Made by a program: the position numbers and the translations under genes. Source: Candidatus Nanopelagicales bacterium (lineage in GTDB: Bacteria > Actinomycetota > Actinomycetes > S36-B12 > GCA-2699445). From it: DNA of 64,000 nucleotides. The notes under the pieces were generated by a model, which was not told the origin of the DNA, made no database searches, and saw only the letters and a list, made by a program, of their open reading frames with translations. Location of the stretch: positions 663 to 64,662 of the forward strand of contig JAUYJT010000056.1 in assembly GCA_030700225.1 (NCBI GenBank), read 5' to 3'. Positions 1-56,793 of this stretch are shown in pieces (position 1 is the stretch's first letter; each line of letters starts with the position of its first letter).

Positions 1-241
1 GGGATCAATCGGCGAGTGTAAGTAGGTCCTAGGTCTCCCGAGCCGCTGCGGGCACTCGTTTTCGGCAACGCCAATAGCTTGTAGTTCTAAGCGCGCCGGA
101 ATCGCCCGCCAACCCCGCCACGAGCGCGGAGCCACCCCCCGGCCGTTCCGTCAAACCGCGGCAGATGCATCTGCCGTCATGAGCTTCGTCGAGCGAACTG
201 AGGATTCCCGAGGGAGCCGCCCTCCCCTACGCGGCGTCCTG

Positions 242-7540: not shown

Positions 7541-8433
7541 AGGACTACGCCGCTGAACAAGTCATCTTCCGGCTGTCCGCTGGGGCCGTCCCCGCGCTGG
7601 CCCTTGGCTAGACGGAAGTGCTCAAAGGCGAACACTGGGGTGCCGACATTGTCCGCAAGCGCGAAGAAGCCGCTTCCCATGTTGATCTGGCTGGCGTGCG
7701 CGTGCAGGGCCGCGACCTTTCGGTCCATCACGCTCGAGACGTCGATGGACGCCCCGATCCAATCCGTGGGGCAGGCGAAGGGCAGATCGTCGGCATCCAA
7801 CGACGCGAAATCAGACTGGTCCCCCATGGCCCTGAGGGCCTCGATACCGGCGCGGACCATGTCGATTGGGAATGCCGTCCAGTAGATCTTGGGTACGTCC
7901 CAAGCCGGTCCGATGTCAGGCCGGTACGACGCGACCTGAGCCAGGGCCGCGGCATAGGTCGTGACGCGGTGGGCCTGGATGTGGTCCGGATGACCGTAGC
8001 CGCCGAAGTCGTCATATGTGACGAGCACGTGCGGCCGCGCGTCCCTGATCACCTCAACCAAGTCGGTCGCGGCCTCGCGCAGATCGGCCCGCCAGAAACT
8101 GTCCGGGTCCTCGTTCGACGGCTCGCCCATCATCCCCGAGTCGCGGTACTTGCCCGCACCGCCGAGGAACCGGAAATCCGTCACTCCCAGGGCTGACATC
8201 GAGGCCGCCAGCTCCGACATCCGGTGTTCCCCCAGCCCACCCTCGGCGCTTGAGCGCAGGTGTTGGATTCCGGGGAGCAGAATCTCGCCCTCTTCGCCGA
8301 GAGTGCAGGTCACCAGAGTGACGCTGCCCGTCCCAGCGGCATGCTTGGCCATCAGGCCACCTGTGGTGATGACCTCGTCGTCCGGATGCGCGTGCACAAC
8401 CATGAGTCGGCGTCCGTGTTCAGCCATTGACAC
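7537..8433 (-). CDS. mshB: GlcNAc-Ins deacetylase (LmbE family, MshB-like)
   Basis: VVHAHPDDEVITTGG zinc-binding motif and HPDH, typical of the LmbE/MshB family. Confidence 0.8.
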   Translation of the reverse strand: MSMAEHGRRLMVVHAHPDDEVITTGGLMAKHAAGTGSVTLVTCTLGEEGEILLPGIQHLRSSAEGGLGEHRMSELAASMSALGVTDFRFLGGAGKYRDSGMMGEPSNEDPDSFWRADLREAATDLVEVIRDARPHVLVTYDDFGGYGHPDHIQAHRVTTYAAALAQVASYRPDIGPAWDVPKIYWTAFPIDMVRAGIEALRAMGDQSDFASLDADDLPFACPTDWIGASIDVSSVMDRKVAALHAHASQINMGSGFFALADNVGTPVFAFEHFRLAKGQRGDGPSGQPEDDLFSGVVL

Positions 8434-8497
8434 ACACTAGAGCCTGCCCCTGACCCGCCCGTGGCCTGCCGGCGGCCTGCGGGCGGCCATGGCCTGC

Positions 8498-8604
8498 CCC
8501 CGCCTGACGAAGCGGCCGTTTCCGACAAACGCGACCGTTACGCAAAGAAACGCTCGTTGTAACGGGCGCGTCTGTACCCAAACGGGCGCGTTTGCGCGAA
8601 GCGG
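8498..8604 (+). repeat. Structured dispersed intergenic repeat, copy A
   Basis: Aligns by eye along its length with 56651-56757 (same orientation) and 34161-34264 (inverted). Contains CAAACGCGACCGTTA and near-complementary AACGGGCGCGTTTG arms. Confidence 0.8.
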
Positions 8605-8715
8605 CCGGTTCCGCGGGGGCGGGCGGGGCGGGCGGGGCGGGCGGGTAGGGCGCGCGGGTCGGGCGGGTCGGGCGGGCGGGGCGCGCGGGTAGGGCGCGCG
8701 GGTCGGGCGGGTCGG
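8605..8715 (+). repeat. G-run tandem tract (about 20 GGG/GGGG runs, ~44-bp higher-order period)
   Basis: GCGGGTAGGGCGCGCGGGTCGGGCGGGTCGGGC occurs twice (8631-8663 and 8674-8706), preceded by a GGGGCGGGC series. Confidence 0.85.
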
Positions 8716-8745
8716 GCACGGGGACGCGAGCAACGCCCCCCAGGT

Positions 8746-21148: not shown

Positions 21149-21312
21149 AACGTTGAAGCGGAACGATCGCGTGGGGTTTCGGCTGTCGTTGGTCACCGCT
21201 GGGTGATGCCGGAGAACATGGCTTGACCTGCGGAAACGCGTTCACGGGAGCTCGGGCGTCGTCGACGATCGTCGGTCTCGGCTGGACTTCTTGCGGACTA
21301 TTTGCGGACCGC
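21149..21312 (+). repeat. Direct repeat R1: ychF-tail mimic plus ~150-bp arm
   Basis: On the minus strand 21146-21163 reads TTC CGC TTC AAC GTT TGA (FRFNV-stop), the same as the ychF end. The rest aligns by eye along its length with 22995-23156 and ends in TCGGCTGGACTTCTTGCGGACTATTTGCGGACCGC. Confidence 0.8.
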
Positions 21313-21432
21313 AGGATGTCCGGAGCCCCTTCCGCATCTGGTCGAACTCGGCCGCCATGCGTCGACCTCAGAGCCCGAATCTGCGGGCAAACACTCGTAG
21401 CCGGGGCGACAGGGGATCCGCATCGCGACGAT

Positions 21433-21930
21433 TCACAGCTGCGCGCCGTCGAACCTCTCGAAGAACCACCCCGCCTGGTCCGGGACGATCTCCGCCAACT
21501 CGTCGGAGACGTCAAGGTCGTACGCGGCAGCGATCTCACCCACCTGGACGCCAACGAGGGCCCGGAGGCGACCAAGAGCCATTGAGAGCGGATCTGTTCC
21601 CATCGGCCGATAGTGGCGGTCCCAGTCGTCGCCTGCGGAACCCACCTGGTCCATGAACTCGCGGAAGAGACGCTGCAGCAGCTGAACCCGTTGAATCATG
21701 TCCGGGCCAATCTCTGGGTTGTCGAGGTGCACGCCCAGCTGCTTGCGTACGTGATCCGCCGACTGCACGCAATGCTCCTCGATCTCCATCGAGAAGTCCT
21801 TCCAAAGCATGCGTCGGTCGGCCAGCAGGTTGAGCGCCCGTCGCGCAATCTCACGGTCGTCGTCCTTCCGCTCCCATTGCGCTCCGCCGAAGGGTCCAAC
21901 CGATCCGCCGGTGACTCGATATCTGGTCAC
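21433..21930 (-). CDS. Hypothetical protein, second gene of the Ymh-like operon
   Basis: 165 aa from GTG 21930, which overlaps the upstream TGA as GTGA. Predicted helical and acidic; no family recognised. Confidence 0.6.
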   Translation of the reverse strand: MTRYRVTGGSVGPFGGAQWERKDDDREIARRALNLLADRRMLWKDFSMEIEEHCVQSADHVRKQLGVHLDNPEIGPDMIQRVQLLQRLFREFMDQVGSAGDDWDRHYRPMGTDPLSMALGRLRALVGVQVGEIAAAYDLDVSDELAEIVPDQAGWFFERFDGAQL

Positions 21931-22718
21931 AAGCTGACTTCCTCGACGTCGGCCTGGTCTACCCATCGAGCCAACAGGCTGAACGCGGCCAGCTGCTCAA
22001 GAGCCAGTTGCTCCTCGCCACCCGCGCTCTCCTGTGGCTTGTGCATACCGGGGTTCCGAATCGCGGTGTAGAGCCCGTCCGCGAAAGCGCGGGCTCCCCG
22101 ATGGAGATTCTGGTAGGTCTTGCCGCCGTCATCCTCCGCCAGGCGAAGACGAGGTGCTCCTTCCTTAGGCTCGTCAAGCGAGAACGCCTCGTTGAACAAC
22201 GCCGTCTCCGACACGTCCATCCGCCCCAACTTGGCCTGCGTCTCCGCATTGATCCGGATCGCCGCCTGCATGACTGCCTGGTGGCAGTGGCCGGTGTTCC
22301 AGTACGACCTTCCGTTCTCCCACGACCACGGGTGGAGATTGGCAGCGTCCATGTCAGGTGCGTTGTCGCCCAACTTCTCAGCCAACTCCCCCTGACGCTG
22401 GAGCGCAGCCTTGGCACGGGAGGCCTGGTCTCGGAGCCAGTCGAAATCCTCGTCCTTCTTCGGACGCTCGCGCGACCAACCGGGAAGCACGCGGTCGAGA
22501 ATCTGCTCCACAACATGCGCGCGTTGCGACGCCTCGGTTGCCGGGCCACGCATGACGGTTCCGAAGTAGGCGATGCCCGGTCCCATGTCAGGGACGACCT
22601 GTGCCGTCACGCCCAGGAACGCGTCGATCTCACTGATTGCCCACTCGGGATCCAACTTCGCCACGGAGACATCTTGCCGCGATGCGCCGACCGAACGAGT
22701 GTCGGAGGCGCGTGTCAC
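21927..22718 (-). CDS. Protein with a C-terminal TIGR02391/Hypoth_Ymh-like domain
   Basis: C-terminal ~130 aa (LHPWSWENGRSYWNTGHCHQAVMQAAIRINAE ... LHRGARAFADGLYTAIRNPGMH ... EQLAAFSLLARWVD) fit the Ymh pattern as I remember it. N-terminal ~115 aa unassigned. Start uncertain (GTG 22718 or 22664). Confidence 0.65.
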   Translation of the reverse strand: MTRASDTRSVGASRQDVSVAKLDPEWAISEIDAFLGVTAQVVPDMGPGIAYFGTVMRGPATEASQRAHVVEQILDRVLPGWSRERPKKDEDFDWLRDQASRAKAALQRQGELAEKLGDNAPDMDAANLHPWSWENGRSYWNTGHCHQAVMQAAIRINAETQAKLGRMDVSETALFNEAFSLDEPKEGAPRLRLAEDDGGKTYQNLHRGARAFADGLYTAIRNPGMHKPQESAGGEEQLALEQLAAFSLLARWVDQADVEEVSL

Positions 22719-22727
22719 GCTCTCTGC

Positions 22728-22973
22728 ATGAGTAACCGTCGCAAGCCGAAGCGCCGCAACCCCGACCCGGCCTCACGCCGCGCCGAGGCGGAAGCTCTTG
22801 TCGACAAGATCCTTCATGACACGCCGGAAGGTCGAGTAGACCCGGCAATCTCAGAGAACCTGCGGCAACATCTTGCGCGGAACCCCGGCCAGCCCGACCG
22901 CGCTCTGCTCAATCACTTCAAGGACCAGATTCCCGACTTCGACGCGGCGTTCCCGGAGGACCTGGAGAAGTAG
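22728..22973 (+). CDS. Small hypothetical protein with a basic N-terminus (81 aa)
   Basis: ATG-initiated ORF MSNRRKPKRRNPDPASRR..., divergent from the Ymh-like gene. A weak hairpin follows at 22977-22994. No homology recognised. Confidence 0.3.
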   Translation: MSNRRKPKRRNPDPASRRAEAEALVDKILHDTPEGRVDPAISENLRQHLARNPGQPDRALLNHFKDQIPDFDAAFPEDLEK

Positions 22974-22994
22974 CAGGGCGGGGCTCTCACGCCC

Positions 22995-23156
22995 CATTGA
23001 AACGGAACGACCACGCGGGATTTGGCCGTTGGTGGTCATCCTGGGTCGATGCCGAAGAGTGCCGCTTGTCCCGCAGCAACGCACTCTCCGGTCCGTTGAG
23101 CGTCGTTGGCGCCCTTCAGGCTCGGCTGGACTTCTCGCGGACTGCTTGCGGACCGC
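22995..23156 (+). repeat. Direct repeat R2: degenerate ychF-tail mimic plus ~150-bp arm
   Basis: Minus-strand 22987-23007 reads FRFNGA-stop. The arm aligns with R1 and ends in TCGGCTGGACTTCTCGCGGACTGCTTGCGGACCGC. Confidence 0.8.
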
Positions 23157-23162
23157 TGGCAA

Positions 23163-23942
23163 TCAGTCATCGGCTTCCAACTCAAGGATGGCGTTGGCGA
23201 CCTCGGACGGGAAGAGCGTCGACCAGATGATCTCGCCCGAGCCAGGGTTCATCTCAGCGAGTGGCGACGGTTCGGGCTGCCAGTCCTCGGGTGTCACACC
23301 CGGGACACAGTCGAGGAGCAGCGCGAAAATCTGCGGATCGGGAACTCCCTCGGCGATGATCGCGAGGTAGGCCTCATGGCCGTTCTCTGCTCGCACAAGA
23401 GCCTTGATCCGATGGCTGCGGAACTCGGCGACGGCGAGGTGGCCGTTCTTCAAGGACATCGAGACAAGGCGGATGACCATCCGCTTCATCTCACGCCGCC
23501 AAGCAACGGCCTGTTCCGCTGCGAGGCGCTTCCAGTCCCAATCGGCCGGAAGAAGGTGATCTGAGGAGACGGTCTTCCCCGTCGTGCACTCTCGCTGCAG
23601 GGTGGCGTAGAAATCGCGCTGAGGGCTGTCCGCTTGGCGTCGACCAGCCGCTCCGATCCACCACGCCCCTCGGCTCGGGCGCACCCAGTCCGGGAGTTCC
23701 TCGCCGCGAAGCTCTGTGACGGCGGCGCGATGGTCACTGGTCTTGACCTTGAACCAGACGCGGTCGGCGAGCGCAACGACGCGCTCTGCGCCACCGGCAT
23801 CCCGCTGCTCTGGAACGCTCTGAGCGTTAGCCACGACCGGGTGATCGATCTCTTCCAACCGGATCCCGAGGTCCGGCAGACCAGCCGCAAGGTCACCGAG
23901 GCAGCGCTTCGTCGGACGCACGCCGATCGGTTCCGAGACCAT
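23163..23942 (-). CDS. Hypothetical 259-aa protein downstream of an RHH gene (candidate toxin/effector)
   Basis: Clean ORF 47 nt downstream of the RHH gene. The segment RVWFKVKTSDHRAAV...AWWIGAAGRRQADSPQRDFY loosely resembles the RelE/ParE beta-sheet pattern. C-terminal ~140 aa unassigned. Confidence 0.6.
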   Translation of the reverse strand: MVSEPIGVRPTKRCLGDLAAGLPDLGIRLEEIDHPVVANAQSVPEQRDAGGAERVVALADRVWFKVKTSDHRAAVTELRGEELPDWVRPSRGAWWIGAAGRRQADSPQRDFYATLQRECTTGKTVSSDHLLPADWDWKRLAAEQAVAWRREMKRMVIRLVSMSLKNGHLAVAEFRSHRIKALVRAENGHEAYLAIIAEGVPDPQIFALLLDCVPGVTPEDWQPEPSPLAEMNPGSGEIIWSTLFPSEVANAILELEADD

Positions 23943-23989
23943 GGCGCGAATCTAGCGGCCAGGTCCGACGGTCAGCGGGCCGTCATGGG

Positions 23990-24250
23990 CTACTTCGGCA
24001 GCCCGCCGAGGTCATCGAGCTCTTCGGCGCTGAGGCCGGTCATAAGCGACACAGCAGCAGCTTCGGTGCCTTTGAGCTGACCGAGCGCAGCCTTGACGCC
24101 AGCGTTGATCTCATCGCGGTGTGCGTCGATGTACTCGCGCACGGCGGCATCGACGATGTCCTTCTTCGAGCGGGACATGAAGTGAGCTGCGTGCGACACA
24201 AGCTCGTCAGTCGCGGCGTCGACCTTGATCGGCGCAGTAGCGGTAGCCAT
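23990..24250 (-). CDS. Ribbon-helix-helix (CopG/ParD-like) DNA-binding protein, antitoxin-like
   Basis: 86 aa from ATG 24250, preceded by AAGGAGGG. The N-terminus PIKVDAATDELVSHAAHFMSRSKKDIVDAAVREYI fits the beta-alpha-alpha RHH pattern. Confidence 0.65.
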   Translation of the reverse strand: MATATAPIKVDAATDELVSHAAHFMSRSKKDIVDAAVREYIDAHRDEINAGVKAALGQLKGTEAAAVSLMTGLSAEELDDLGGLPK

Positions 24251-24269
24251 AGCGCTGCCCTCCTTCTCG

Positions 24270-24283
24270 GGTACCAAAGTACC
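24270..24283. promoter_or_regulatory. Palindrome GGTACCAAAGTACC upstream of the RHH gene (candidate operator)
   Basis: Perfect 5+5 inverted repeat with a 4-nt spacer, 20-33 nt upstream of the RHH start on the minus strand. Confidence 0.35.
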
Positions 24284-24313
24284 AGTATCTACCGTCATGG
24301 CAAATCCGCGTGG

Positions 24314-25381
24314 ATGGTTATGCGTCCGGCCGCACGTCGCCGATCCGCCTGTGGGCGCCAGTGCACGCCGATAACCTCAGAGGCACCATGGGTTACCGGG
24401 GACGACGACGCCAACCGCCTTGCCGCCCAAGCGCGCGCCCGCGTGCTCATCGACCGGCAGCTCGCCGAGGCGGGCTGGTCGGCGCAGGACCTTAAGTACG
24501 TCGTCCTGTTCCGCCCGATCGGCTCGATGGTCGAGTTCAAGCAGATCGTCGGGCGAGGGTCACGTCTCTACCCCGAGAACGACAAGTACTCCTTCGAGAT
24601 CGTGGACTACGTCGGCGCTTCGGTCCTTTTCTCCGATCCAGGCTTCGACGGTGAGCCGGTGCGCATACGGACCGAGCGCATCGACGAGTCCGGCGAGATC
24701 GTCGAAGACGAACTCGGGGACGTTGCCCCCGAGATGCCGTCGCTTGGCGAACCCGAGCCCCCCTTCGACCGAACCCAGTCCGAAGGAGAGCTCGAACAGC
24801 CGTCGGCGAGGAAGCATTACGTCGACGGCACAGAGGTCACTGTGACTGCCGAGGCGTACTACGTCGCTGACACGAGTACCGGCGCTCTCCGCCTCGTGGA
24901 ATACACGGACTACCTGGCCGGCCAGGTGCGCGTGCTGTGTCCGACCATCGATGACCTTCGCGCACGCTGGGCCGATCCTCAGCTACGTGCGGTCTTGGAG
25001 GAGGGCCTCGCCTCGCGCGGCGTGTCCATCGAAGAGATGTCGAGGCGCCTCGAACTTGCGCCCGACACGGACCCCTTCGACGTCCTCGCACACGCCGCCT
25101 GGAACGTTCCTCAACGGACGAGGGCGGAACGCGCTCGGCTGGTGCGCGAAGACCACGCGAGCGACCTCAAGGCGCTGGTGCCGACCGCGCGCGAGATCAT
25201 CTCCGCCCTCCTCGACCGCTACGAGGAGTACGGCGTCGAGGAGATGACCCACATCTACGCCTTCCAGGTGCCGCCGCTGAGCAACTTCGGCTCACCCGTC
25301 GAAGCGGCACAACACTTCGGCGGCGCTGAAGGCTGGCGCCAAGCCGTCAGCGAGCTCCAAGGTTGGCTGTACTCAGCGTGA
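24314..25381 (+). pseudogene. hsdR: Type I restriction enzyme R subunit remnant (in-frame internal deletion)
   Basis: HsdR-like N-terminal motif ARARVLIDRQLAEAGW is joined directly to helicase motif VI (FKQIVGRGSRL) and an EcoEI_R_C-like C-terminus (DPFDVLAHAAWNVPQRTRAERA). Nuclease and DEAD-box motifs I-V are absent. Confidence 0.7.
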
Positions 25382-25435
25382 GTTTTATTTTAGCGACGGC
25401 CGACTGCATAGAACTAAAGTCTAGATTGAGTTCGA

Positions 25436-26047
25436 ATGCGCTATGCTTGGCCCATGGCCGGCACTCGACAGGATCTGCGGCTGGCGCTCCAACGCCTTGC
25501 CTTCAGCCAGGCTGGCTACTTCACCGCCGCCGAGGCTCTCGACCTCGGGTACAGCTATCAGGCACAGAAGTACCACGCCGATAGTGGCAACTGGCTGCGA
25601 GTCGACCGTGGTCTGTTCCGACTTCCCGACTGGCCCTCCGCTCCCGAGGACCAGTGGGTGCGCTGGACCCTATGGAGCGAGGGCCGTGGCGTCGTGTCCC
25701 ACGACTCGGCCGCGCTCGTCCACGACCTCGGCGAGCTCGATCCCCGCCACGTGCACCTGTCCGTTCCCCCCGGATTCCGGGCCGTGGATCCGGCGGTGGT
25801 CACGCATGTGTACGATCTGCCTGCCGCGGACGTTCTCGACCGCGGCGCCTGGCGGGTGACTACGCCGCTGCGCACACTGCTCGATCTCGCGGGTGGCGAC
25901 ACCACGCAGGAGCAACTCGAGGCTGCGGTCGCCGCCACGCTGGAGCGGGGCCTGACGACCGCGCGCCGGATCCGCACTCGCTCGGACGAGGCCGGAGACC
26001 GGGCGGCGCTCCGCATCGAGCGGGCGCTCAAGGCAACGACGACATGA
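25436..26047 (+). CDS. Type IV toxin-antitoxin system AbiEi family antitoxin
   Basis: 203 aa with an AbiEi-like wHTH N-terminus (LAFSQAGYFTAAEALDLGYS) and an ATGA overlap with the downstream nucleotidyltransferase. Preceded by the only low-GC patch in this region (25381-25435). Confidence 0.75.
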   Translation: MRYAWPMAGTRQDLRLALQRLAFSQAGYFTAAEALDLGYSYQAQKYHADSGNWLRVDRGLFRLPDWPSAPEDQWVRWTLWSEGRGVVSHDSAALVHDLGELDPRHVHLSVPPGFRAVDPAVVTHVYDLPAADVLDRGAWRVTTPLRTLLDLAGGDTTQEQLEAAVAATLERGLTTARRIRTRSDEAGDRAALRIERALKATTT

Positions 26048-26898
26048 CCGACAACCAGGCGCTCAGAACCAGCATCGAGCAACGGCTCGCCAATCTGGCG
26101 GCCGAGCGACAAGTCTCGCTCGATCGGTTGCGCCGCCACTTCGTTTTCCAGCGGATCCTGGTTCGACTGTCCGCGGACGACAACTGGGTACTCAAAGGCG
26201 GCTTCGCCCTCGAGGTCAGGCTCGGCCTCGACGCCCGGGCGACCAAGGATCTGGATCTGGCCATGCTGGAGGACCTCGACGGCGTCGAGGCGCAGGATCG
26301 TCTGCTCGATGCTCTCGACGTCGACGCCGGTGACGGATTGACCTTCCAGGTGTCCGCACCGCGAGCGATCGCCTCGGACGATGCCGGAAACCCCGGCTGG
26401 AGGTTCACCGTCACATCGGTCCTAGGCGGCAAGGTCTTCGCATCGCTGCGCCTCGACGTCGTCGCGCGGAGCGCGGAGATCGTCGGCGCCATCGGCACCA
26501 TCGAGGTACGCCCGCCGATCCTCGCGGAACTCCTGAGCAGCACCGCGATGCCGACGGTGGACATCGCCCAGCACGCCGCGGAGAAGTTCCACGCGATGGC
26601 CCGGACGTACGCCGGAGATCGACCCAGCAGCCGCGTCAAGGACTTGGTCGACGTCGTACTCCTCGTGGAAGCGGGGCTGCTGCCGAATCCGGACCTGCCC
26701 GGTCGGCTTCAAACGGTCTGGCAGGTGCGGGACGGCGTGCCGCCACCGGCACAGCTCCCCGATTTCCCGGCGTCGTGGCCCAGCGACTTCGCCGCAATGG
26801 CCGCTGAACTCGATCTGGCCGTCGACTACCCCACCGCCCGCTCCACCGCCGAACGACTCTTCGCCGAGGCGGTCACCACCGAGGAGAACCAATCGTGA
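26044..26898 (+). CDS. AbiEii/AbiGii nucleotidyltransferase toxin (DUF1814)
   Basis: VLKGGFALEVRLGLDARATKDLDL nucleotidyltransferase motif. 284 aa. Its stop overlaps the hsdM GTG as GTGA. Confidence 0.8.
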   Translation: MTDNQALRTSIEQRLANLAAERQVSLDRLRRHFVFQRILVRLSADDNWVLKGGFALEVRLGLDARATKDLDLAMLEDLDGVEAQDRLLDALDVDAGDGLTFQVSAPRAIASDDAGNPGWRFTVTSVLGGKVFASLRLDVVARSAEIVGAIGTIEVRPPILAELLSSTAMPTVDIAQHAAEKFHAMARTYAGDRPSSRVKDLVDVVLLVEAGLLPNPDLPGRLQTVWQVRDGVPPPAQLPDFPASWPSDFAAMAAELDLAVDYPTARSTAERLFAEAVTTEENQS

Positions 26899-28391
26899 GC
26901 CGTGCCGCCAAGAGCGTTGCCCAGACCCCGCAGGCGCGTCTCGCGTCGGTCATCAAGACCAGTCGGGACATCATGCGCAAGGACGCCGGCCTCAACGGCG
27001 ACCTGGACCGGCTTCCTCAACTGTCCTGGCTCCTCTTCCTCAAGGCCTTCGACGACCTCGAGCGGAACAGGATGATCGTCGACCCCAGCTACCGGCCAGC
27101 ACTGCCGGAGGAGCTCCGATGGAGCGTGTGGGCGGCAGATCCGACCAAGCGCAAGCAGGGTGACGCCCTCATCAACTGGGTCAACGGAACCCTGCTCCCG
27201 GGGCTTGGCCGACTGAAGGGATCCGGCCGGGCGGGCGACCCTCGCACCACGCTCGCCACGGTCTTCAAAGAGACCAACAACCGAATGCTGTCCGGCTACC
27301 TGCTCGGTGACCTGATCGACCAGATCGACAAGGTGCACTTCACGTCGGCCGACGACATCCACACCATGGCCCATCTGTACGAGTCGATGCTGCGCGAAAT
27401 GCGGGACGCAGCCGGAGACTCGGGCGAGTTCTACACACCCCGGCCGGTGATCCGGCTCATGGTCGAGCAGGTCAATCCGCGCTTGGGCGAGACGGTGCTG
27501 GACCCGGCTGTCGGCACAGGCGGATTCCTGGTCGAGGCATACGAGCACCTCCGCGCCCAGGCGCGGTCCGCGACCGAGATCGCGACGGCGAAACGCTCGA
27601 TCAGCGGCTTCGAGAAGAAGCCACTCCCCTACCTGCTCTGCCAGATGAACCTGCTCCTGCACGAAGTGGAACAGCCCAACGTCACCCGCATGAACTCGCT
27701 GACCTTCTCGTTGGCTGACCAGCGCAAGGCCGGCGTCGACGTCGTTCTGACCAACCCGCCGTTCGGGGGTGAGGAGGAGAGCAGCAGCCTGGGGAACTTC
27801 CCTGCCGACTCGCGGACGGCAGAGACCGCCTGGCTGTTTCTCCAGGTGGTGATGGCGCGCCTGGAGAAGAGGAAGGGCCGCTGCGGGATCGTCGTCCCCA
27901 ACGGGGTCCTCTTCGCCAACGAGGGCGCGCCGGCACGGATCAAGAAGAAGCTGCTCACCGACTTCAACCTGCACTCTGTGGTGCGGCTGCCCAACGGCGT
28001 CTTCGCTCCGTACACCCTCATCCCCTCCAACCTGCTCTTCTTCGAATACGGCGGGCCAACGAAGGACATCTGGTTCTACGAGCAGCCCCTGCCGGAGGGG
28101 CGGAAGAACTACACGAAGACAAGACCGCTGCGTTTCGAGGAATTCGCCGATGTCCAGGCATGGTGGGGTGGCACGGATCGAGTCGGCCGAGTCGAGAACG
28201 AGCACGCGTGGAAGGTCGACGCCGCCACACTCGCGGAGGACGGCTACAACCTGGATCTCCGCAACCCGCATCGTGCCGACGATCTGACGCATCGCTCGCC
28301 CGAGGAACTCGTCAAGGAACTGATTGCCGTGGAGGAGCAGATCCTCGCAGCCCTTCAGGACCTCCAGTCCAACCTCGGGAACGACGCCTGA
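26895..28391 (+). CDS. hsdM: Type I restriction-modification system methyltransferase subunit
   Basis: N6-adenine MTase motif IV NPPFGG, SAM motif VLDPAVGTGGFL, and an HsdM N-terminal domain. Confidence 0.9.
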   Translation: MSRAAKSVAQTPQARLASVIKTSRDIMRKDAGLNGDLDRLPQLSWLLFLKAFDDLERNRMIVDPSYRPALPEELRWSVWAADPTKRKQGDALINWVNGTLLPGLGRLKGSGRAGDPRTTLATVFKETNNRMLSGYLLGDLIDQIDKVHFTSADDIHTMAHLYESMLREMRDAAGDSGEFYTPRPVIRLMVEQVNPRLGETVLDPAVGTGGFLVEAYEHLRAQARSATEIATAKRSISGFEKKPLPYLLCQMNLLLHEVEQPNVTRMNSLTFSLADQRKAGVDVVLTNPPFGGEEESSSLGNFPADSRTAETAWLFLQVVMARLEKRKGRCGIVVPNGVLFANEGAPARIKKKLLTDFNLHSVVRLPNGVFAPYTLIPSNLLFFEYGGPTKDIWFYEQPLPEGRKNYTKTRPLRFEEFADVQAWWGGTDRVGRVENEHAWKVDAATLAEDGYNLDLRNPHRADDLTHRSPEELVKELIAVEEQILAALQDLQSNLGNDA

Positions 28392-29512
28392 TGGCGGTGC
28401 GGCAGGTGCGAGTAGGGGACATCCTCTCGCTTCACCGCGTTCCCGTTCAGATTGACGAGGCAGATAGCTACAGGCAAATCGGCCTCTACTCCTGGGGCAA
28501 AGGGTTCATCCATCGACCTTCGTGTCTCGGCTTCGAACTCAGCAAGCTTCGTTACTTTCAGATCCCAGCCGGCGCTCTCGTTCTCAGCAGCATCCAGGCA
28601 TGGGAGGCGGCCATCGCCGTATCGACCAACGCTGAAGCTGAATTCATCGGGTCGAACCGGTTCCTTAGCTATGTACCGCGCACCGACGACGTGGACGTGC
28701 GCTACTTACTGCACTACTTCCTCTCCGAACCTGGTCTCCACCAGATCAAGCAGGCTTCGCCGGGAACGCAGGTACGAAACCGAACGCTGGGGCAGCAACT
28801 CTTCGAGCGCCTAGCAATTCCCCTGCCCGACGTCACCGAGCAGCAGTGCATTGCCGCACGCCTCGACCGAATCGTGGCAATCTCGACGTCGTTCGGCGAA
28901 CCTCCGACCGCGGCCCTTCGAGACAACTTCCTCGATAGGGTCTCGCAGAGATCACGGATCGGGCACATCATCACGCTTGCTCGACACCCTGTGAGCGTCA
29001 AAGCGAGCGAGGCCTACCCGAACCTCGGCATCCTCAACCGGGCCCGTGGTGTGTTCGCCAAGCCGCCGATGCTGGGTTTAGGGACGAAGTACTCGACCTT
29101 GTATCGGGTGCGCGCCGGACAGTTGATCTATTCGAAACTGTTCGGCCGGGAGGGATCGCTCGCCATCGTGCCCGAGTGGGCGGACGGGTGGTTCGTCTCC
29201 AGCGAGTTCCCCACGTTCGACGTGAACACCGACGCAGTAGATCTCGACTACTTCGGCCAGGTGTTGCGCTGGCGCGGTCTCGCGGAACAGCTGGCCGCCG
29301 CGACGTCAGGGATGGGTCAGCGGCGACAGCGCGTGCAGATCGACCAGTTCGAGGCGCTCGAGGTCCCGTTGCCAGACCTCCCGACCCAACGCCACATCGG
29401 CGCCGATCTCCTCCGACTCGCCGCAGTCGAGGGCCTGGTGGCCCACAGGGCAACGCTGTCGGCCGGCCTACTTCCTGCCGCTCGGAATCAAGCGTTCGCC
29501 AGCCTCACCTGA
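28391..29512 (+). CDS. hsdS: Type I restriction-modification system specificity subunit
   Basis: ATG overlaps the hsdM TGA (TGATG). 373 aa with two target-recognition-like halves separated by a helical spacer (LPLPDVTEQQCIAARLDRI and LPLPDLPTQRHIGADLLRL). Confidence 0.8.
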   Translation: MAVRQVRVGDILSLHRVPVQIDEADSYRQIGLYSWGKGFIHRPSCLGFELSKLRYFQIPAGALVLSSIQAWEAAIAVSTNAEAEFIGSNRFLSYVPRTDDVDVRYLLHYFLSEPGLHQIKQASPGTQVRNRTLGQQLFERLAIPLPDVTEQQCIAARLDRIVAISTSFGEPPTAALRDNFLDRVSQRSRIGHIITLARHPVSVKASEAYPNLGILNRARGVFAKPPMLGLGTKYSTLYRVRAGQLIYSKLFGREGSLAIVPEWADGWFVSSEFPTFDVNTDAVDLDYFGQVLRWRGLAEQLAAATSGMGQRRQRVQIDQFEALEVPLPDLPTQRHIGADLLRLAAVEGLVAHRATLSAGLLPAARNQAFASLT

Positions 29513-30161
29513 CGCTGCGCCATGAACTTCCCGCGATTACTACGTGGTCAAGGAACCGGAGTCCGGCCGCATCGGCGGCCCGGCCTACGGCGCCAGTGGC
29601 CTCACGGTCGTAGATGCTTGGGGTCGGATCTCCAGAAGGATGATTGTGCGCGAGGGCGAACGCTCGACCGTCGTACCGCAGCACGGCGTGCAGCACCTCT
29701 CGGACAGGCAACGGACTCGAGTCCAGGCCTCCAGTTGCAACGGGTACAAGGCGAAGCACGCGGTTGGCGGCGTCGGCCACCAGGACCACGACCTTCTCCC
29801 GCCGTTCGCGGGCGAGCACCGGGGCGACCAGCTCAGCGATCGCGGCTGCGGAGTCCACGACACGGTTGGCCGGTGAAGCTGTAGCCCGAGCCGCTAGTTC
29901 GAATGCGGCTGTTAGGCGCACTGCCTCTGCGGGGCCGATGCTTGATGACCGCATCAGCTCCTCAGGAAACGCGGCTGCCAGGCCACTCAGTCCTCCGCAC
30001 TCGTCGATCAGTTTCCGACCCACCGCAACCTCGTCGCATCCCTGTGGTGCTACGGCGGCTACCAGGGCAACAAGCTCGGCGTCGCTGAGCGCGCCAGGTC
30101 CCAGACTCAGGAGACGCTCGCGGGGCTGGTCGCCGGCGAACAGCCGCGACGTGATCGACAT
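29505..30161 (-). CDS. radC: RadC-like JAB/MPN domain protein
   Basis: JAMM motif LAHNHPSGDPTPS and an N-terminal HhH-like region. Converges on hsdS with an 8-nt overlap. Confidence 0.8.
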   Translation of the reverse strand: MSITSRLFAGDQPRERLLSLGPGALSDAELVALVAAVAPQGCDEVAVGRKLIDECGGLSGLAAAFPEELMRSSSIGPAEAVRLTAAFELAARATASPANRVVDSAAAIAELVAPVLARERREKVVVLVADAANRVLRLVPVATGGLDSSPLPVREVLHAVLRYDGRAFALAHNHPSGDPTPSIYDREATGAVGRAADAAGLRFLDHVVIAGSSWRSVR

Positions 30162-30231
30162 CCCGCAACGCTAGGTCGCAGAGCCGACGAGCACTATCGC
30201 GCCCGAGACACCTGTGGAAAGGCTAGCTTCG

Positions 30232-30570
30232 TCAGCCCTTGAAGATGCAGGTCGGATCGTTGTCGTACTCGGCCAGCAGCCGCTCGATCGGCTGATCCGG
30301 CTCGAGAAGGTCGTAGGCATGGGCTCGGGAGTTCCGATCGAACCAGTACAGGGTCCAGCCCTTCGTTTGCTCGTCGTACTTCATCCGAGCCTGCGGAGTG
30401 TCGGTCCACTCCGGGCCTAGCGCCGGATTCCACGGCGGCCGATGCTCGACGATCGTCACGGTGCGACCGCGCACGCGGTGCTCCACACGCACCTGTTCCC
30501 GCATCTCGGGCGGGACCTGCGTCTCGCAGAACCGCCGGATCCGCGCGAGATCGGTCTCTGGGACGGCCAT
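30232..30570 (-). CDS. DUF3024-like protein
   Basis: 112 aa from the internal ATG (MAVPETDLARIRRFCE...VTIVEHRPPW...GWTLYWFDRNSRAH), a pattern I associate with DUF3024. Confidence 0.6.
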   Translation of the reverse strand: MAVPETDLARIRRFCETQVPPEMREQVRVEHRVRGRTVTIVEHRPPWNPALGPEWTDTPQARMKYDEQTKGWTLYWFDRNSRAHAYDLLEPDQPIERLLAEYDNDPTCIFKG

Positions 30571-30784
30571 GGGCTCAGTATCTGATGAGTATCGCCGGGG
30601 CCGCCATCCGCGTCCCACCCTTCCCGCTCTCGTGCCCCTCACTGACTACCGCCGACTCCTCACCGTCGCGAGAATCTCTCCCACGTCGCACCCGCCTTCG
30701 CCCTCAACCCCTTTGAGTGGCACCCATCAGACAGAACCCGCGAACCTTGCCGATTGGTCGGCCCTGGCTGCAAAGATCGATGTC

Positions 30785-31696
30785 ATGAGCGGCAAGCACA
30801 TCGAGCTCTTCCTCGTCGACGGCACCCCCGGCGGCCTGACGACTGCGGAGATCCTGAACTGGACGGGGCAGGTCTTCAGTGCTCCGCGATCGGAGATGAG
30901 CGCCCTCGTCCGCCGCGCCGAGCTCGCGGGCACGTGCGTGTACCTACTGCTCGGTCCCGACGAGCAAGGCGGCAGCCGTTGCTACATCGGCGAGACCGAC
31001 GACTTCAAGGCACGCCTTCGATACCACGATGCGAACAAGGAGTTCTGGCGCAAGGCCGTGGTGATCACCTCGAAGGACGCGAACCTGACGAAGGCACACG
31101 GCCGCTATCTGGAGTCCCGCCTGATCGCACTCGCTCTCCAGGTCGGCCGCGTCGTCCTCGACAATGGGACGACTCCTCCGCCACAGGCACTGCCCGAGGC
31201 GCACGCCTCCGACATGGACTACTTCATCGACCAGCTGCAGATTGTCCTGCCGGCCCTCGGAGTCGATGCCATCCGCGGTCGGGAGACCGTCGCAGTGACG
31301 GCAGCGCGGCAGGAACAGCTGGTGTCGCCGGTCTTTCGTCTCGTGAACATGAAGCTCGGCGTCGCTGCAACGGCTCAGCAGATCGACGGGGAGTTCACGA
31401 TGCTGGCCGGTTCTACCGTCGTGGGTGACTGGCAGGGCGTGGGGAAGGCCGACAGCACGATCAAGGCGTACGACTCGTACCGAACCCAACACCTCAAGCT
31501 CATCGCCGACGGCTCGATCATCGTCGAGAACGGTGTCGGTCGGGTCGCGAAGGACATCGTCTTCGGCTCCCCATCGACCGCTGGCGCGATCGCTCAGGGG
31601 CGCTCCTGCAACGGCCGGACCTCCTGGGCGGCGGAGGACGGCAGCACCTTCGGCTCCTGGGAGAGCCGCGGTGTCGGGACAACGGAGGTCTCCTGA
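30785..31696 (+). CDS. GIY-YIG nuclease domain protein with a DUF4357-like C-terminus
   Basis: GIY-YIG elements CVYLLLG, CYIGETDDFKARLRYH and ESRLI. The C-terminus FGSPSTAGAIAQGRSCNGRTSW is typical of DUF4357. Start ATG 30785; the upstream ORF extension is antisense to DUF3024. Confidence 0.75.
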   Translation: MSGKHIELFLVDGTPGGLTTAEILNWTGQVFSAPRSEMSALVRRAELAGTCVYLLLGPDEQGGSRCYIGETDDFKARLRYHDANKEFWRKAVVITSKDANLTKAHGRYLESRLIALALQVGRVVLDNGTTPPPQALPEAHASDMDYFIDQLQIVLPALGVDAIRGRETVAVTAARQEQLVSPVFRLVNMKLGVAATAQQIDGEFTMLAGSTVVGDWQGVGKADSTIKAYDSYRTQHLKLIADGSIIVENGVGRVAKDIVFGSPSTAGAIAQGRSCNGRTSWAAEDGSTFGSWESRGVGTTEVS

Positions 31697-31698
31697 CC

Positions 31699-31842
31699 AT
31701 GGCTGGCATCCAGCACCTGTCCATGCGCGCGCCATGGCGCGACCGACCGTGGGACCAGTTCCTCTGCGACGACCCGCTCGGCAACTCCTCATGCACTCTC
31801 CTCGCGGCGATCGGCAAACGTCGTGACGACGACACTGGTGAG
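31699..31842 (+). pseudogene. N-terminal stub (~48 codons) of a larger gene coupled to the GIY-YIG gene
   Basis: ATG lies 2 nt after the GIY-YIG stop. MAGIQHLSMRAPWRDRPWDQFLCDDPLGNSSCTLLAAIGKRRDDD looks like a genuine conserved N-terminus, but after ~31842 the frame runs antisense through another gene. Confidence 0.45.
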
Positions 31843-31989
31843 GAGCGGCAATTGATTCAGGCGCTCCTCGGCCTGCCGGAGGAACGACGCCGCACGCGCG
31901 ACGTCTGCGGGCACGACATCGAGACGTCCCGCCTCGACCAGCGCGAGCACGGTCGCCTGCTGGACGCGGGTGAGCGGGGTCAGCGCCAC
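31789..31989 (-). pseudogene. Truncated partner gene of the wHTH-nucleotidyltransferase (possible HEPN-type toxin remnant)
   Basis: GTG 31989 overlaps the upstream stop by 10 nt. About 49 plausible codons (VALTPLTRVQQATVLALVEAGRLDV...RLNQLPLLTS) are followed by junk read-through to the stop at 31789. Confidence 0.4.
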
Positions 31990-32564
31990 GGCAGCTCCCC
32001 GATCACGGCGACCGCCGGGCCGCTGCGCACGTTGTCCAGGAAGCCGGAGGGAGCGGCGAACTCCGCATCTGTGAGGATCGTCGGGTTCACGGGCCGGTGC
32101 ACCGCAGCCTCGATCCGGGCGCACGCCTCGTAGACCGCGTCCACGTCGGGCTCACCGAGCACCATGACGTCGATGTCGTGCGGTGCCGGACCGGCATCCC
32201 CGAGCATCCGCGCGGCGAAGGAACCGTAGAGGAACGCCGACTCGATCCCGTCGATGCGAGCAAGCTCCTCGGCCAGGATCACCACCGGACCAGTAGCGAC
32301 CGTGAGGATCTCGCGCAACGGCTCCACCAGCGGGCTCTCGCCGTTGGCGCGGATCAGCCTCGTGCGGCCCACCTGCCGCTCGCTCAGGATGCCAGCGTCC
32401 ACCAGGCGCGCGACCTCGCGGTGCGCGGTCGGGTATGCCAGGCCCGCCCGTTTGGCCAGATCGGTGACGCTGAGCTCCTCGCCGGTCAGCAACAAGGTGG
32501 AGAGCAGGCGCGCTTGGCCGTCCGACCGGAAGATCGGAGCGAGGAGCGGTGCCTCAGTTCTCAT
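31980..32564 (-). CDS. Winged-helix (ArsR/MarR-like) plus nucleotidyltransferase-domain protein (MNT-type antitoxin-like)
   Basis: HTH region LSVTDLAKRAGLAYPTAHREVARLVDAGIL and NTase motif LYGSFAARMLGDAGPAPHDIDVMVL. ATG 32564 chosen. Confidence 0.7.
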   Translation of the reverse strand: MRTEAPLLAPIFRSDGQARLLSTLLLTGEELSVTDLAKRAGLAYPTAHREVARLVDAGILSERQVGRTRLIRANGESPLVEPLREILTVATGPVVILAEELARIDGIESAFLYGSFAARMLGDAGPAPHDIDVMVLGEPDVDAVYEACARIEAAVHRPVNPTILTDAEFAAPSGFLDNVRSGPAVAVIGELPWR

Positions 32565-32573
32565 ATAACTGAG
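32553..32573. promoter_or_regulatory. 7-bp inverted repeat CTCAGTT-N7-AACTGAG spanning the start codon of the wHTH-NTase gene
   Basis: Perfect inverted repeat in a low-GC patch. Candidate autoregulatory operator or 5-prime hairpin. Confidence 0.35.
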
Positions 32574-32975
32574 ATTATCCTCCACTATATCGATAGTCAA
32601 CGCCGGGGAATAGTCAAGACCTGTGGATTGGCGTGTCTCATGCTGCGGTGATCCCGTCGGGGCGCTCGATGAGTTTGAACGCCATCGCCACGCCATCTGC
32701 CCTCGAGCCTGGACCTTTGGTGACTTTGGTCCGCAGCCGGACGGTCGCGAACACGGACTCCATCGTTCATCGTTATCTGGAGGCGTCCAGCAGGGGGGTC
32801 CTTGGAGGTCTGATGCTCGTTCAGCGGGTGGCGGCACTACGAGCCGTGCTTGAAGCCGAAATCGCGCAGAATGTCGGACCCGTAGTACACAATGAGGAGG
32901 TCAACGCAGCCTAAGCGATCAACGGGCCGCTACCGAAGTTCCACGGAACTCGGGACATCCTCGAAACGCGCCGAT

Positions 32976-34055
32976 TCACACGTTGAAGCGGAACTCCACG
33001 ACGTCCCCTTCGGCCATGACGTAGTCCTTGCCCTCGATATGCAACTGGCCGCGCGCCCTGGCCTCGGCCAGGGACCCGGCCGCGACCAACTCATCGAAGG
33101 ACACGACCTCGGCCTTGATGAACCCGCGCTGGAAATCAGTGTGAATGACGCCGGCGGCCTCCGGTGCCGTGGCGCCCCTGCGAATCGTCCAAGCGCGCGA
33201 TTCCTTCGGGCCAGCTGTCAGGAAAGTCTGCAATCCGAGCGCGTCGAAAGCGACACGCGCCAAAGCCGCGATGCCTGACTCCTCCTGCCCGACCGACCGC
33301 AGAAGCTCAAGGGCTTCCTCTTCGGGCAGCTCGGCCAGCTCCGACTCGACCTTCGCGTCCAGAATCACGGCCTCCGCCGGGGCCACCAACGCACGTGCCT
33401 GGGCCGCGAAGTTCGGGTCCGCCAGCTCCTGCTCATCCGCGTTGATCACGTAGAGGAAGGGCTTGGCCGTCAACAAGAACAGCTCCCGGATCGCGGCGGC
33501 GTCGACGCCGGATCCGAACAGGGTCCGCCCAGAGTCCAGGATCTCCTGCGCCCGCAGGGCTGCGGATAGGGCCGCACCGCGCGACTTGTCGTTTCGAGCC
33601 TCCTTCTCCAACCTGGGGATCGCCTTCTCGAGGGTCTGCAGGTCCGCCAGGATCAGCTCAGTGTTGATCGTGTCCATGTCATCGGCGGGCGATATCCGAC
33701 CCTCCAGATGGATCACATCTGGGTCCTCGAACGCTCGCAGTACCTGGCAGATCGCGTCGGACTCGCGGATGTGAGCCAGGAACCTATTCCCCAACCCCTT
33801 GCCCTCGCTGGCACCGCGCACGATCCCCGCGATGTCGACGAAGGTGACCGCCGCCGGTACGACCCTCCGCGAGGCGAAAACCTCCGCCAGAACGTCCAGC
33901 CTGGGATCCGGCACCCCAACGACGCCAGTGTTCGGCTCGATCGTCGCGAAGGGGTAGTTGGCGGACATGGCGGCCGCTGAGTTGCGAGTCAGGGCGTTCA
34001 GCAGCGTCGACTTTCCAACGTTAGGCAAGCCGACGATTCCGACAGTGAGTCCCAC
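32976..34055 (-). CDS. ychF: Redox-regulated ATPase YchF
   Basis: P-loop GIVGLPNVGKST, and a C-terminal IHTDFQRGFIKAEV TGS-type domain. Ends in EFRFNV-stop. Confidence 0.9.
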   Translation of the reverse strand: MGLTVGIVGLPNVGKSTLLNALTRNSAAAMSANYPFATIEPNTGVVGVPDPRLDVLAEVFASRRVVPAAVTFVDIAGIVRGASEGKGLGNRFLAHIRESDAICQVLRAFEDPDVIHLEGRISPADDMDTINTELILADLQTLEKAIPRLEKEARNDKSRGAALSAALRAQEILDSGRTLFGSGVDAAAIRELFLLTAKPFLYVINADEQELADPNFAAQARALVAPAEAVILDAKVESELAELPEEEALELLRSVGQEESGIAALARVAFDALGLQTFLTAGPKESRAWTIRRGATAPEAAGVIHTDFQRGFIKAEVVSFDELVAAGSLAEARARGQLHIEGKDYVMAEGDVVEFRFNV

Positions 34056-34160
34056 TAGGGCAGTCTAGGTGGGCGAAGCGGTGCGGGATTCGCGCCAGCA
34101 TCGCCCAGACCCCCGCAGCCCGCGTCGGCCGACGGGGTTAGCTATCCGGACGACGGGGTT

Positions 34161-34264
34161 GGCGGCCGTTCCTGACAAACGCGACCGTTAGGGTACAGAC
34201 GCGACCGTTGCAACGGGAGTTTCTTTGCGTAACGGTCGCGTTTGGCGGGAACGGTCGCTTCTTC
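34161..34264 (-). repeat. Structured dispersed intergenic repeat, copy B (inverted)
   Basis: Perfect 15-bp inverted repeat CAAACGCGACCGTTA (34176-34190) / TAACGGTCGCGTTTG (34230-34244) enclosing the 12-bp palindrome CCGTTGCAACGG (34205-34216). The reverse complement aligns with copies A and C. Confidence 0.85.
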
Positions 34265-45251: not shown

Positions 45252-45338
45252 TCGGCGCGAACCTACTAACCGGAACCTGCGGCGCGTTTGGGCGAACGTG
45301 TGCCGGACTTGTTACGCTCCGCGTGCCGGAGGTGAGTA

Positions 45339-56617: not shown

Positions 56618-56650
56618 CCCTGCCCCGCGCCGCACCTCGCCCCTCCGCGC

Positions 56651-56757
56651 AGAAACGGCCGCTCCCGACAAACGCACCTGTTACGCAAGGAAACGACCGT
56701 TCTAACGGGCGCGTCTGTACCCAAAAGGGCGCTTCTGTTCGGAGCGGCCGTTTCTGC
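56651..56757 (+). repeat. Structured dispersed intergenic repeat, copy C
   Basis: GAAACGGCCGCTCCCGACAAACGCACCTGTTACGCAAGGAAACGACCGTTCTAACGGGCGCGTCTGTACCCAAAAGGGCGC... is collinear with copy A. Confidence 0.8.
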
Positions 56758-56760
56758 CAG

Positions 56761-56792
56761 GACGGCGGGACGGCGGGACGGCGGGACGGCGG
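56761..56792 (+). repeat. Perfect tandem octamer (GACGGCGG)x4
   Basis: Four exact 8-nt units immediately after repeat copy C, abutting the stop codon of the convergent DUF2752-like gene. Confidence 0.9.
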
Positions 56793-56793
56793 G

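Follow-up and report, generated by a model that had tools for sequence, protein, structure and literature searches.

The question raised by this locus is what kind of sequence is present, three times, in the intergenic spaces of a 64-kb window (the window being the whole stretch of 64,000 nucleotides that was analysed). The first-pass annotation had described collinear segments at 8498-8604 (+), 34161-34264 (inverted) and 56651-56757 (+), and had offered a REP/MITE-like element, a structured sRNA family or a clustered regulator-binding module as possible readings. The segments were found at these positions and in these orientations, and are 79-85% identical to each other. They are collinear over about 105 bases and all of them are intergenic. 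The conserved elements, as delimited by alignment, repeat search, nhmmer and a covariance model, and the palindromes that contain them are as follows:

8509-8612, plus strand: conserved element, copy A
8516-8610, plus strand: part of copy A that is equivalent to the 95-nt insert at the other two sites
8493-8627: imperfect palindrome of copy A, full extent
34160-34264, minus strand: conserved element, copy B
56650-56758, plus strand: conserved element, copy C
56641-56765: extent of the palindrome of copy C

The repeat search gave pairwise identities of 85% over 103 nt (A/B), 79% over 100 nt (B/C) and 79% over 127 nt (A/C), and the mean column identity of the three copies in a MAFFT alignment was 80-84%. 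When an nhmmer profile and a covariance model were run on the 64-kb window, exactly three copies were returned (E 1e-34 to 1e-36, 114-126 bits), which is the count that had been given before. The weaker reverse-strand nhmmer matches at the same three places reflect the palindromic nature of the repeat. The common sequence blocks that had been quoted are also real, the invariant 19-mer AACGGNCGCGTCTGTACCC being present exactly once in each copy (0.08 expected by chance).

In element orientation each copy is composed of three direct units of ~19 nt, with RAAnCGCGACCGTT-like cores, followed by three inverted units, and this is the nested inverted arrangement of a repeated submotif that the first-pass annotation had perceived. 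The six ACGCGACCGTT-like units are spaced by 19-20 bp and the symmetry centre of the element is CCGTTGYAACGG. This 3+3 arrangement of units was found nowhere else in the ~330 kb examined. The window contains 16 ACGCGACCGTT-like units where 6.6 would be expected; they form clusters only inside A, B and C, and no isolated units were found outside the copies.

The whole element can be folded into a single long interrupted hairpin and this holds on either strand. As RNA, the element strand gave -54 to -59 kcal/mol (z -5.0 to -6.2) and the opposite strand -55 to -71 kcal/mol, with z-scores ranging from -2.5 to -8.3 over both strands and all copies. As DNA, folded with its flanks, it gave -34 to -47 kcal/mol (z -4.5 to -5.6). 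The extended hairpin, which had been proposed as a possibility, is thus formed by each copy on both strands. Since the units are iterated, alternative pairing registers are possible: units 1-3 are each able to pair with units 4-6, alternative clover-like folds could be formed, and in the fold of copy C unit 2 is paired with unit 4. The terminal arms are 74-90% complementary, copy C having a perfect 16-bp terminal repeat.

The best-conserved parts of the element are two asymmetric internal loops, ACGCAARGAAAC and CGTCTGTACCCWAA, in which 24 of 26 columns are invariant versus 51 of 83 elsewhere (Fisher p=0.003). These loops give the element a polarity, the two strands being non-equivalent. Folding and a search for covariation had been recommended as a check; the fold was confirmed on both strands, and pairing appears to be conserved, with 89% of the pair cells paired across the three copies versus 34-50% in slid controls. 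Moreover, seven stem pairs are changed on both sides across A, B and C, which with three sequences is suggestive only.

The gene context, taken from Pfam and the source annotation, is as previously described, with two divergent sites and a convergent one. Copy A is placed between divergent genes encoding an MshB-type PIG-L deacetylase (ATG at 8427, minus strand) and an S9 peptidase (ATG at 8764, plus strand). Copy B is placed between the divergent ychF (minus strand) and rmuC (plus strand, ATG at 34330), and copy C where the 3' ends of an ABC-2 permease gene (plus strand) and a DUF2752 gene (minus strand) converge. Copies A and B are located within 50-130 nt of start codons and copy C is in a 3' UTR-like position. 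The orientation of the copies relative to the neighbouring genes varies, and these neighbours are functionally unrelated. A crude GC3-based gene map gave ~14% of the window as intergenic; since this map missed several genes, the figure is too high.

No sigma-70-like promoter signals were detected around copies A, B and C, and a search of both strands around each copy found no intrinsic terminator-like sites. No copy has a T-tract, in agreement with the earlier view that a simple terminator role does not explain all three. The similar peptides encoded by the ORFs of the three segments had been considered a by-product of the nucleotide repeat. This view is supported by the fact that zero matches were obtained with a four-frame concatenated profile of the element peptides against 5.8 billion proteins and with a single-frame profile against 1.84 billion representatives; at E<=10 the six-frame peptides had no match in protein databases. 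Two readings of short motifs as regulator sites were tried and rejected. The GlnR box has the form GTnAC-N6-GAAAC, so that in GTTAC-N5-GAAAC the spacing is off by one, and this reading had no other support; the GAAC-containing ends are a poor match to a LexA/Cheo box.

By exact look-up of five flanking proteins, the window was assigned to contig JAXMJW010000030.1 (67,922 bp) of the NCBI MAG GCA_034376245.1, labelled Candidatus Nanopelagicales bacterium. Filled and empty sites were compared using a sister MAG (GCA_034523275.1) which contains members of the same protein clusters (90% identity grouping) as the flanking proteins of the window. Its contigs show 95.5-97.3% nucleotide identity to the window over ~48 kb of synteny. 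In this MAG and in the matching Logan contigs of SRR26726070 the element is present at site A and missing at sites B and C, the flanking genes being conserved. In the window and the sister MAG together the repeat was therefore seen as four copies at three sites. The sister copy A (contig L021, 9825-9932) is ~95% identical and occupies the orthologous site; the orthologous A copies differ by 6 substitutions (~5%) and A, B and C differ among themselves by 15-21%. The sequences that define the junctions are listed below, a slash marking the junction with the element or, in an empty allele, the corresponding point:

8509-8515, plus strand: GAAGCGG heptamer at the left edge of copy A; its counterpart at B and C is already present in the empty allele
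34161-34255, minus strand: DNA of copy B missing from the sister MAG (95 nt; 34148-34255, 108 nt, in an alternative alignment)
34256-34264, minus strand: GAAGAAGCG at the left edge of copy B, also in the sister empty allele (GAAGAAGCG/GATGCT)
34130-34160, minus strand: sequence 3' of copy B, composed of AACCCCGTCG (34151-34160), TCC (34148-34150), GGATAGCT (34140-34147) and AACCCCGTCG (34130-34139)
56659-56753, plus strand: core of copy C missing from the sister MAG (95 nt)
56650-56658, plus strand: CAGAAACGG at the left edge of copy C, also in the sister empty allele (CAGAAACGG/ATGCT)

At site C the sister intergenic region has 77 bp and reads ...CCGCGCAGAAACGG/ATGCTCGTATGTAGGTCAAGCTGCG/CTACATGAG, and the window reads ...CCGCGCAGAAACGG/CCGCTCCC...(core)...GGCCGTTT CTGCC (GGACGGCG)x4 /CTACATGAG. 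At site B, in element orientation, the sister has ...GAAGAAGCG/GATGCTAACCCTGTCGGCCGG and the window ...GAAGAAGCG/ACCGTTCCC...(core)...GGCCGCC AACCCCGTCGTCC GGATAGCT AACCCCGTCGGCCG. From this comparison it follows that the first 7-9 nt of the apparent left end (GAARCGG) pre-exist in the empty alleles and, since this is the case at both B and C, the GAAGCGG of copy A can be regarded as target-side sequence. The left junction is the same at B and C, after GAARCGG (after GAAGCG at B) and in the same element orientation. Both empty alleles carry the 12-mer GAARCGGATGCT, with the motif GAARCGG/ATGCT, and this 12-mer was found nowhere else in 26 loci (~330 kb; ~0.08 expected). The differential core has 95 nt at B as well as at C. 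No clear target-site duplication was seen between the filled and empty alleles of these two sites, at most a possible one of 2-3 nt (CG/CGG). The right junction at B is ambiguous because of the two-copy direct repeat of AACCCCGTCG, and at site C ~20 nt were replaced by the core and the adjoining array, which is not a clean insertion.

Where the two genomes differ by indels of at least 6 nt, these fall mainly at the three element sites; the only others are three of 7-18 nt and a gap near 45269, which has 30 nt or, when aligned with MAFFT, 35 nt. The 35-nt segment (GCGCGAACCTACTAACCGGAACCTGCGGCGCGTTTGG..), at 45256-45298 of the window and absent from the sister MAG, is located between a HlyIII-family gene and greA. 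It is bounded by GCGAAC-like direct repeats and part of it is loosely like the right arm of the element (GCGCGTTTG.GCGAA).

The ychF-rmuC spacer of the sister MAG (contig L023, 1076-1510) contains ~430 extra nt, including a fragment that encodes the last ~45 residues of a transposase of the IS5 family (Pfam DDE_Tnp_1_2, E 6.8e-6, ..RWVIERTHAWINHNRRMARQWE..) and is bracketed by similar CGGCCG..GGGGTT sequences. The presence of this fragment indicates that more than one kind of mobile DNA has landed in the spacer. A link between the element and the IS5-family fragment was considered and rejected, given that nhmmer and the covariance model found no similarity and no homologue of the fragment was retrieved.

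A defence-island-like block is also present in the window at ~21400-32840, with genes encoding DUF6650, Hypoth_Ymh, an EcoEI_R_C protein, AbiEi/AbiEii, type I HsdM/HsdS, RadC and DUF4357. The sister contigs examined end at 18502 and resume at 33031, and the Logan contig L013 ends at the right border of the island. The island is possibly variable between strains, and copy B is placed ~1.3 kb from its edge. Inside the island there is a second two-copy direct repeat (21200-21320 and 23044-23165), ~70% identical over ~120 nt, whose 60-nt core is 82% identical and contains GGCTGGACTTCTYGCGGACT..TTGCGGACCGC.

Copies A and C are each followed, at most a few bases past the 3' end, by one of the two strongest intergenic tandem arrays of the window. 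These arrays, and a motif on the other side of copy A, are:

8616-8717, plus strand: G-rich tandem array directly 3' of copy A, with GGGGCGGGC-type units and 9/22/44-nt periods
8449-8461, plus strand: left-flank motif CCTGACCCGCCCG of copy A, reverse complement of the array unit CGGGCGGGTCGGG (92% complementary)
56759-56793, plus strand: (GGACGGCG)x4 tandem array directly 3' of copy C, reaching the DUF2752 stop codon and absent from the sister MAG

As CCTGACCCGCCCG is the reverse complement of CGGGCGGGTCGGG, the array unit on the right side of copy A, the palindrome at this site continues into the flanking sequence. In the sister MAG the array at A lacks ~67 nt, and on one Logan contig it is ~44 nt shorter, which may be a k-mer collapse. 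The GGG runs of the arrays at A and C could form quadruplexes. In the left flank of copy A (8465-8500) there are iterated GGCCTGC motifs, and an 11-nt piece, CGCAGGCCGCC (8471-8481), is missing in the sister MAG, so that a further small and variable repeat adjoins the element here.

The copy-specific flanks outside the core are complementary to each other, with duplex energies of -20.8, -17.4 and -13.0 kcal/mol versus a null of -6.6 +/- 3.2 (empirical p = 0.0004, 0.0024 and 0.04). The empty sites B and C have stems of 5-6 bp only and fold no better than shuffles (z -0.2 and -0.7), and therefore the pairing of the flanks was not simply inherited from a pre-existing hairpin. For the same reason we rejected the idea that the element lands in pre-existing hairpins. 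Intra-strand template switching in the quasi-palindrome would extend or correct the palindrome and promote slippage. Such a process would also explain the compensatory changes in the stem, so that selection on RNA is not required for them.

The repeat was then sought in databases. Rfam gave no match at the gathering score and none at E<=5 in the three repeat regions, and the search suggested earlier thus led to no already named ncRNA family. A scan with the exact 19-mer returned chance matches only, 8 in the GTDB species representatives (185,579 genomes) and 4 in JGI metagenomes, and no matches in viral contigs. Three of these 12 matches were inspected (on L003, L009 and L012) and have unrelated flanks; with nhmmer, 0 of the 12 match the element beyond the motif. 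No match was found by blastn against plasmid and phage collections, and literature searches on actinobacterial REP/MITE families brought up no match to the repeat sequence.

Among the relatives of YchF none is above 79% identity except one identical Logan fragment. The recommended search for further copies in relatives recovered copy A in the sister MAG; the B and C sites were empty there, and nhmmer and the covariance model found no copies in the ychF loci of the nearest other lineages (79% YchF identity, ~75 kb non-redundant). In the nearest outgroup, at this same 79%, the rmuC-ychF spacer has 73 bp and lacks the element. Judging from these sequences, the family looks restricted to one species-level lineage.

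Within that lineage copy A is complete in GCA_034376245.1, in GCA_034523275.1 and on a Logan contig of SRR26726070, and parts of copies A and B are present on independent Logan contigs of SRR26726065 and SRR13727534. Three Logan contigs (k=31) extend to A or B, and each of them stops within the element, L013 in copy B and both L030 and L031 in copy A; contig L027 ends in the array at copy C, the contigs that end at an element or array coming from three sequencing runs. No run of 30 or more bases is common to any two of the copies A, B and C, and Logan contigs nevertheless break inside the element, which suggests that there are further near-identical copies elsewhere; the alternative is poor coverage across strong hairpins. 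Also, given that A, B and C are 15-21% diverged and the A orthologues only ~5%, the donors of B and C would be unsampled copies if these two are recent gains. We infer that the genome contains additional copies; a density of three per 67 kb would correspond by extrapolation to roughly a hundred per 2-3 Mb, a figure with a very wide uncertainty.

At ~140-170 (minus strand), 3' of a hemerythrin gene, a GGCAGATGCATCTGCC hairpin is followed by GCGGTTTGACGGAACGGCCGGG, which agrees with the right end of the element, GCGTTTGTCAGGAACGGCCGCC, at ~18 of 22 nt. This match scores below the thresholds of nhmmer and of the covariance model, and may represent a solo fragment or have arisen by chance. Logan contig L030 also ends ~40 nt past it (near window 104).

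Taken together, these results are best explained if the repeat is a non-autonomous, palindromic and target-specific mobile element, restricted to one lineage and REPIN/MITE/PATE-like, and we would put the probability of this reading at about 0.68. It retains the REP/MITE-like proposal of the first-pass annotation, which is supported by the empty B and C sites of the sister and by their common 12-mer and left junction; the sRNA family and the regulator-binding module are disfavoured. The polymorphism at B and C would be the work of an enzyme acting in trans, possibly a transposase of the single-strand (HUH/Y1) type, which inserts the element or excises it precisely. The 73-bp outgroup spacer without the element may slightly favour gain at site B. 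The element is found directly 3' of GAARCGG within GAARCGG/ATGCT, in fixed orientation and without a clear target duplication. Template switching inside the quasi-palindrome would produce the pairing of the flanks and the compensatory changes. Any effects on the neighbouring genes (a strong UTR hairpin, a changed promoter spacing, termination where the genes converge) would be secondary consequences.

In the main rival reading the repeat is an immobile relic, whose old copies at B and C were lost from the sister by hairpin-promoted slipped-strand deletion between very short direct repeats, and the polymorphism would then stem from the instability of the palindrome and not from transposition. 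The copies are indeed 15-21% diverged versus ~4% between the genomes, palindromic sites are clearly unstable, as the variable arrays illustrate, and at B a deletion between the CG/CGG repeats at the base of the hairpin would give the empty allele. However, two independent deletions would both have to yield the 12-mer GAARCGGATGCT with the same left junction, and site C is not derivable by one deletion. Moreover, copy A is intact in both genomes, a distant outgroup has no element at the B site and a past spread by transposition would still be required, and for these reasons we consider the relic unlikely. An assembly or binning artefact is hardly credible: the source is a MAG, and repeats and palindromes are prone to mis-assembly, but two MAG assemblies and a Logan contig of SRR26726070 contain the whole of copy A, and parts of A and B are on further independent Logan contigs.

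The two remaining readings depend on a function at the level of RNA or of DNA binding. That the hairpin was selected as RNA, either in a family of sRNAs or as a cis-acting UTR element, appears quite improbable in spite of its strong and significant folding, the compensatory pair changes, the conserved loop sequences and the positions of the copies (C being 3' UTR-like, A and B within 50-130 nt of start codons). Both strands fold, as those of a DNA palindrome would, the orientation relative to the flanking genes is inconsistent, no sigma-70-like promoter or intrinsic terminator was found around the copies and Rfam has no match at E<=5. Furthermore, B and C are missing in a 96%-identical strain with the same genes, and the covariation, weak at three or four sequences, could be produced by template switching in the quasi-palindrome. 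That the repeat is a module of clustered binding sites for a nucleoid protein or a DNA-binding regulator, with six ACGCGACCGTT-like sites 19-20 bp apart, is very improbable. Such a module would agree with the iteration of the units at roughly two-helical-turn spacing, with the location of two copies in divergent promoter regions and with the conservation of non-palindromic blocks. Against it, the whole module of ~100 nt, spacers included, has been copied at 79-85% identity, which points to common descent and not to convergent sites. In addition, at one copy the gene ends converge, the neighbouring genes have no functional relation to each other, a near-identical strain does without two of the three modules, and there are no isolated units elsewhere.

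Returning to the mobile element, a more far-reaching version can be conceived, which we regard as speculative and rather doubtful. It would be an undescribed type of mobile palindrome in Actinomycetota, composed of 3+3 iterated units with the two conserved loops that define its polarity, and moved by a single-strand DNA enzyme to a target of ~12 nt (GAARCGG/ATGCT) without duplication. Its palindrome would grow into the host flanks by fold-back and template switching, and it would seed G-rich, potentially quadruplex-forming variable arrays near promoters.

Most of what is understood about small palindromic repeats comes from Proteobacteria and a few pathogens, and to our knowledge very little has been described on such repeats in uncultured high-GC actinomycete lineages. 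The filled and empty sites in 96%-identical genomes, with their 12-nt empty-site motif, provide a natural comparison that could help to find the mobilising enzyme. They could also be used to test the effects of long hairpins in promoter and terminator regions on expression and on local repeat instability. The element breaks up k-mer assemblies of its host organism, and such elements could serve as strain markers. The details of the element merit a whole-genome census of its copies.

Several known systems can be compared with this repeat. REPs and REPINs are mobilised by RAYT (TnpA-REP) Y1 HUH transposases, whose gene has the repeats on its flanks, and occur in tens to hundreds of copies per genome. 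A REPIN is formed by two inverted REP hairpins and a spacer that together make a long hairpin, with compensatory changes (Bertels & Rainey 2011, PMC3116915). In REP families, those compiled being mostly from Proteobacteria, a conserved 5' guide tetranucleotide, GT[AG]G, is located 0-2 nt away from the hairpin foot (PMC6006769). Like REPINs, our element has ~100 nt, is non-coding and strictly intergenic, is composed of symmetric inverted halves in one long hairpin, shows compensatory stem changes and presence/absence without target duplication, and has a species-specific sequence. Unlike them, its hairpin feet (..CTGACGAAGCGG.., ..GGGGTGAAGAAGCG.. and ..GCGCAGAAACGG.., with their complements on the right) have no GTAG or GTGG on either side, each half is composed of three tandem ~19-nt units and not of a self-folding REP hairpin, no RAYT gene was seen within 67 kb and the host is an actinomycete.

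As in IS200/IS605 elements and PATEs, insertion is directly 3' of a short specific sequence which is kept at the left flank. There is likewise no target duplication, the orientation to the target is fixed, as in IS200/IS605, and the structure depends on a hairpin; excision of IS200/IS605 elements can also restore the target. These elements, however, have two separate subterminal hairpins of 20-25 nt, at the left and right ends, which a Y1 transposase recognises, and a target of 4-5 nt, whereas here a single palindrome of ~95 nt and a motif of 7-12 nt were found. In addition, no Y1 or other transposase gene was seen in the stretches examined (source genome, 67 kb; sister, ~46 kb), and the window has no transposase or integrase genes.

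The likeness to MITEs and other interspersed palindromes (Correia/NEMIS, ERIC/IRU, RUP, Nezha) lies in a size of ~100-150 bp, terminal inverted repeats, either orientation, intergenic location and insertion polymorphism between strains, and MITEs also give long-hairpin transcripts. With a core of 95-105 nt, the element is within the size limit of MITEs (<300 bp), and it is non-coding with terminal inverted repeats. Unlike MITEs, it has no defined target-site duplication (such as TA) and no ends in common with a parent IS were seen; the single IS trace examined, the DDE_Tnp_1_2 fragment of the sister spacer, has no similarity to it by nhmmer or covariance model. Template-switch mutagenesis in quasi-palindromes, with growth of the palindrome, is an established mechanism of replication slippage. 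It could explain the compensatory changes, the copy-specific pairing of the flanks and the inverted left-flank array to the right of A, but it is a mutational process and not a family, and gives no explanation for the dispersal to unlinked loci.

Most likely, therefore, the family belongs among the known small palindromic interspersed mobile repeats, as a new and lineage-restricted member. Its unusual details are the 3+3 arrangement of units, the 12-nt empty-site motif, the extension of the palindrome into the flanks and the adjacent G-rich variable arrays.
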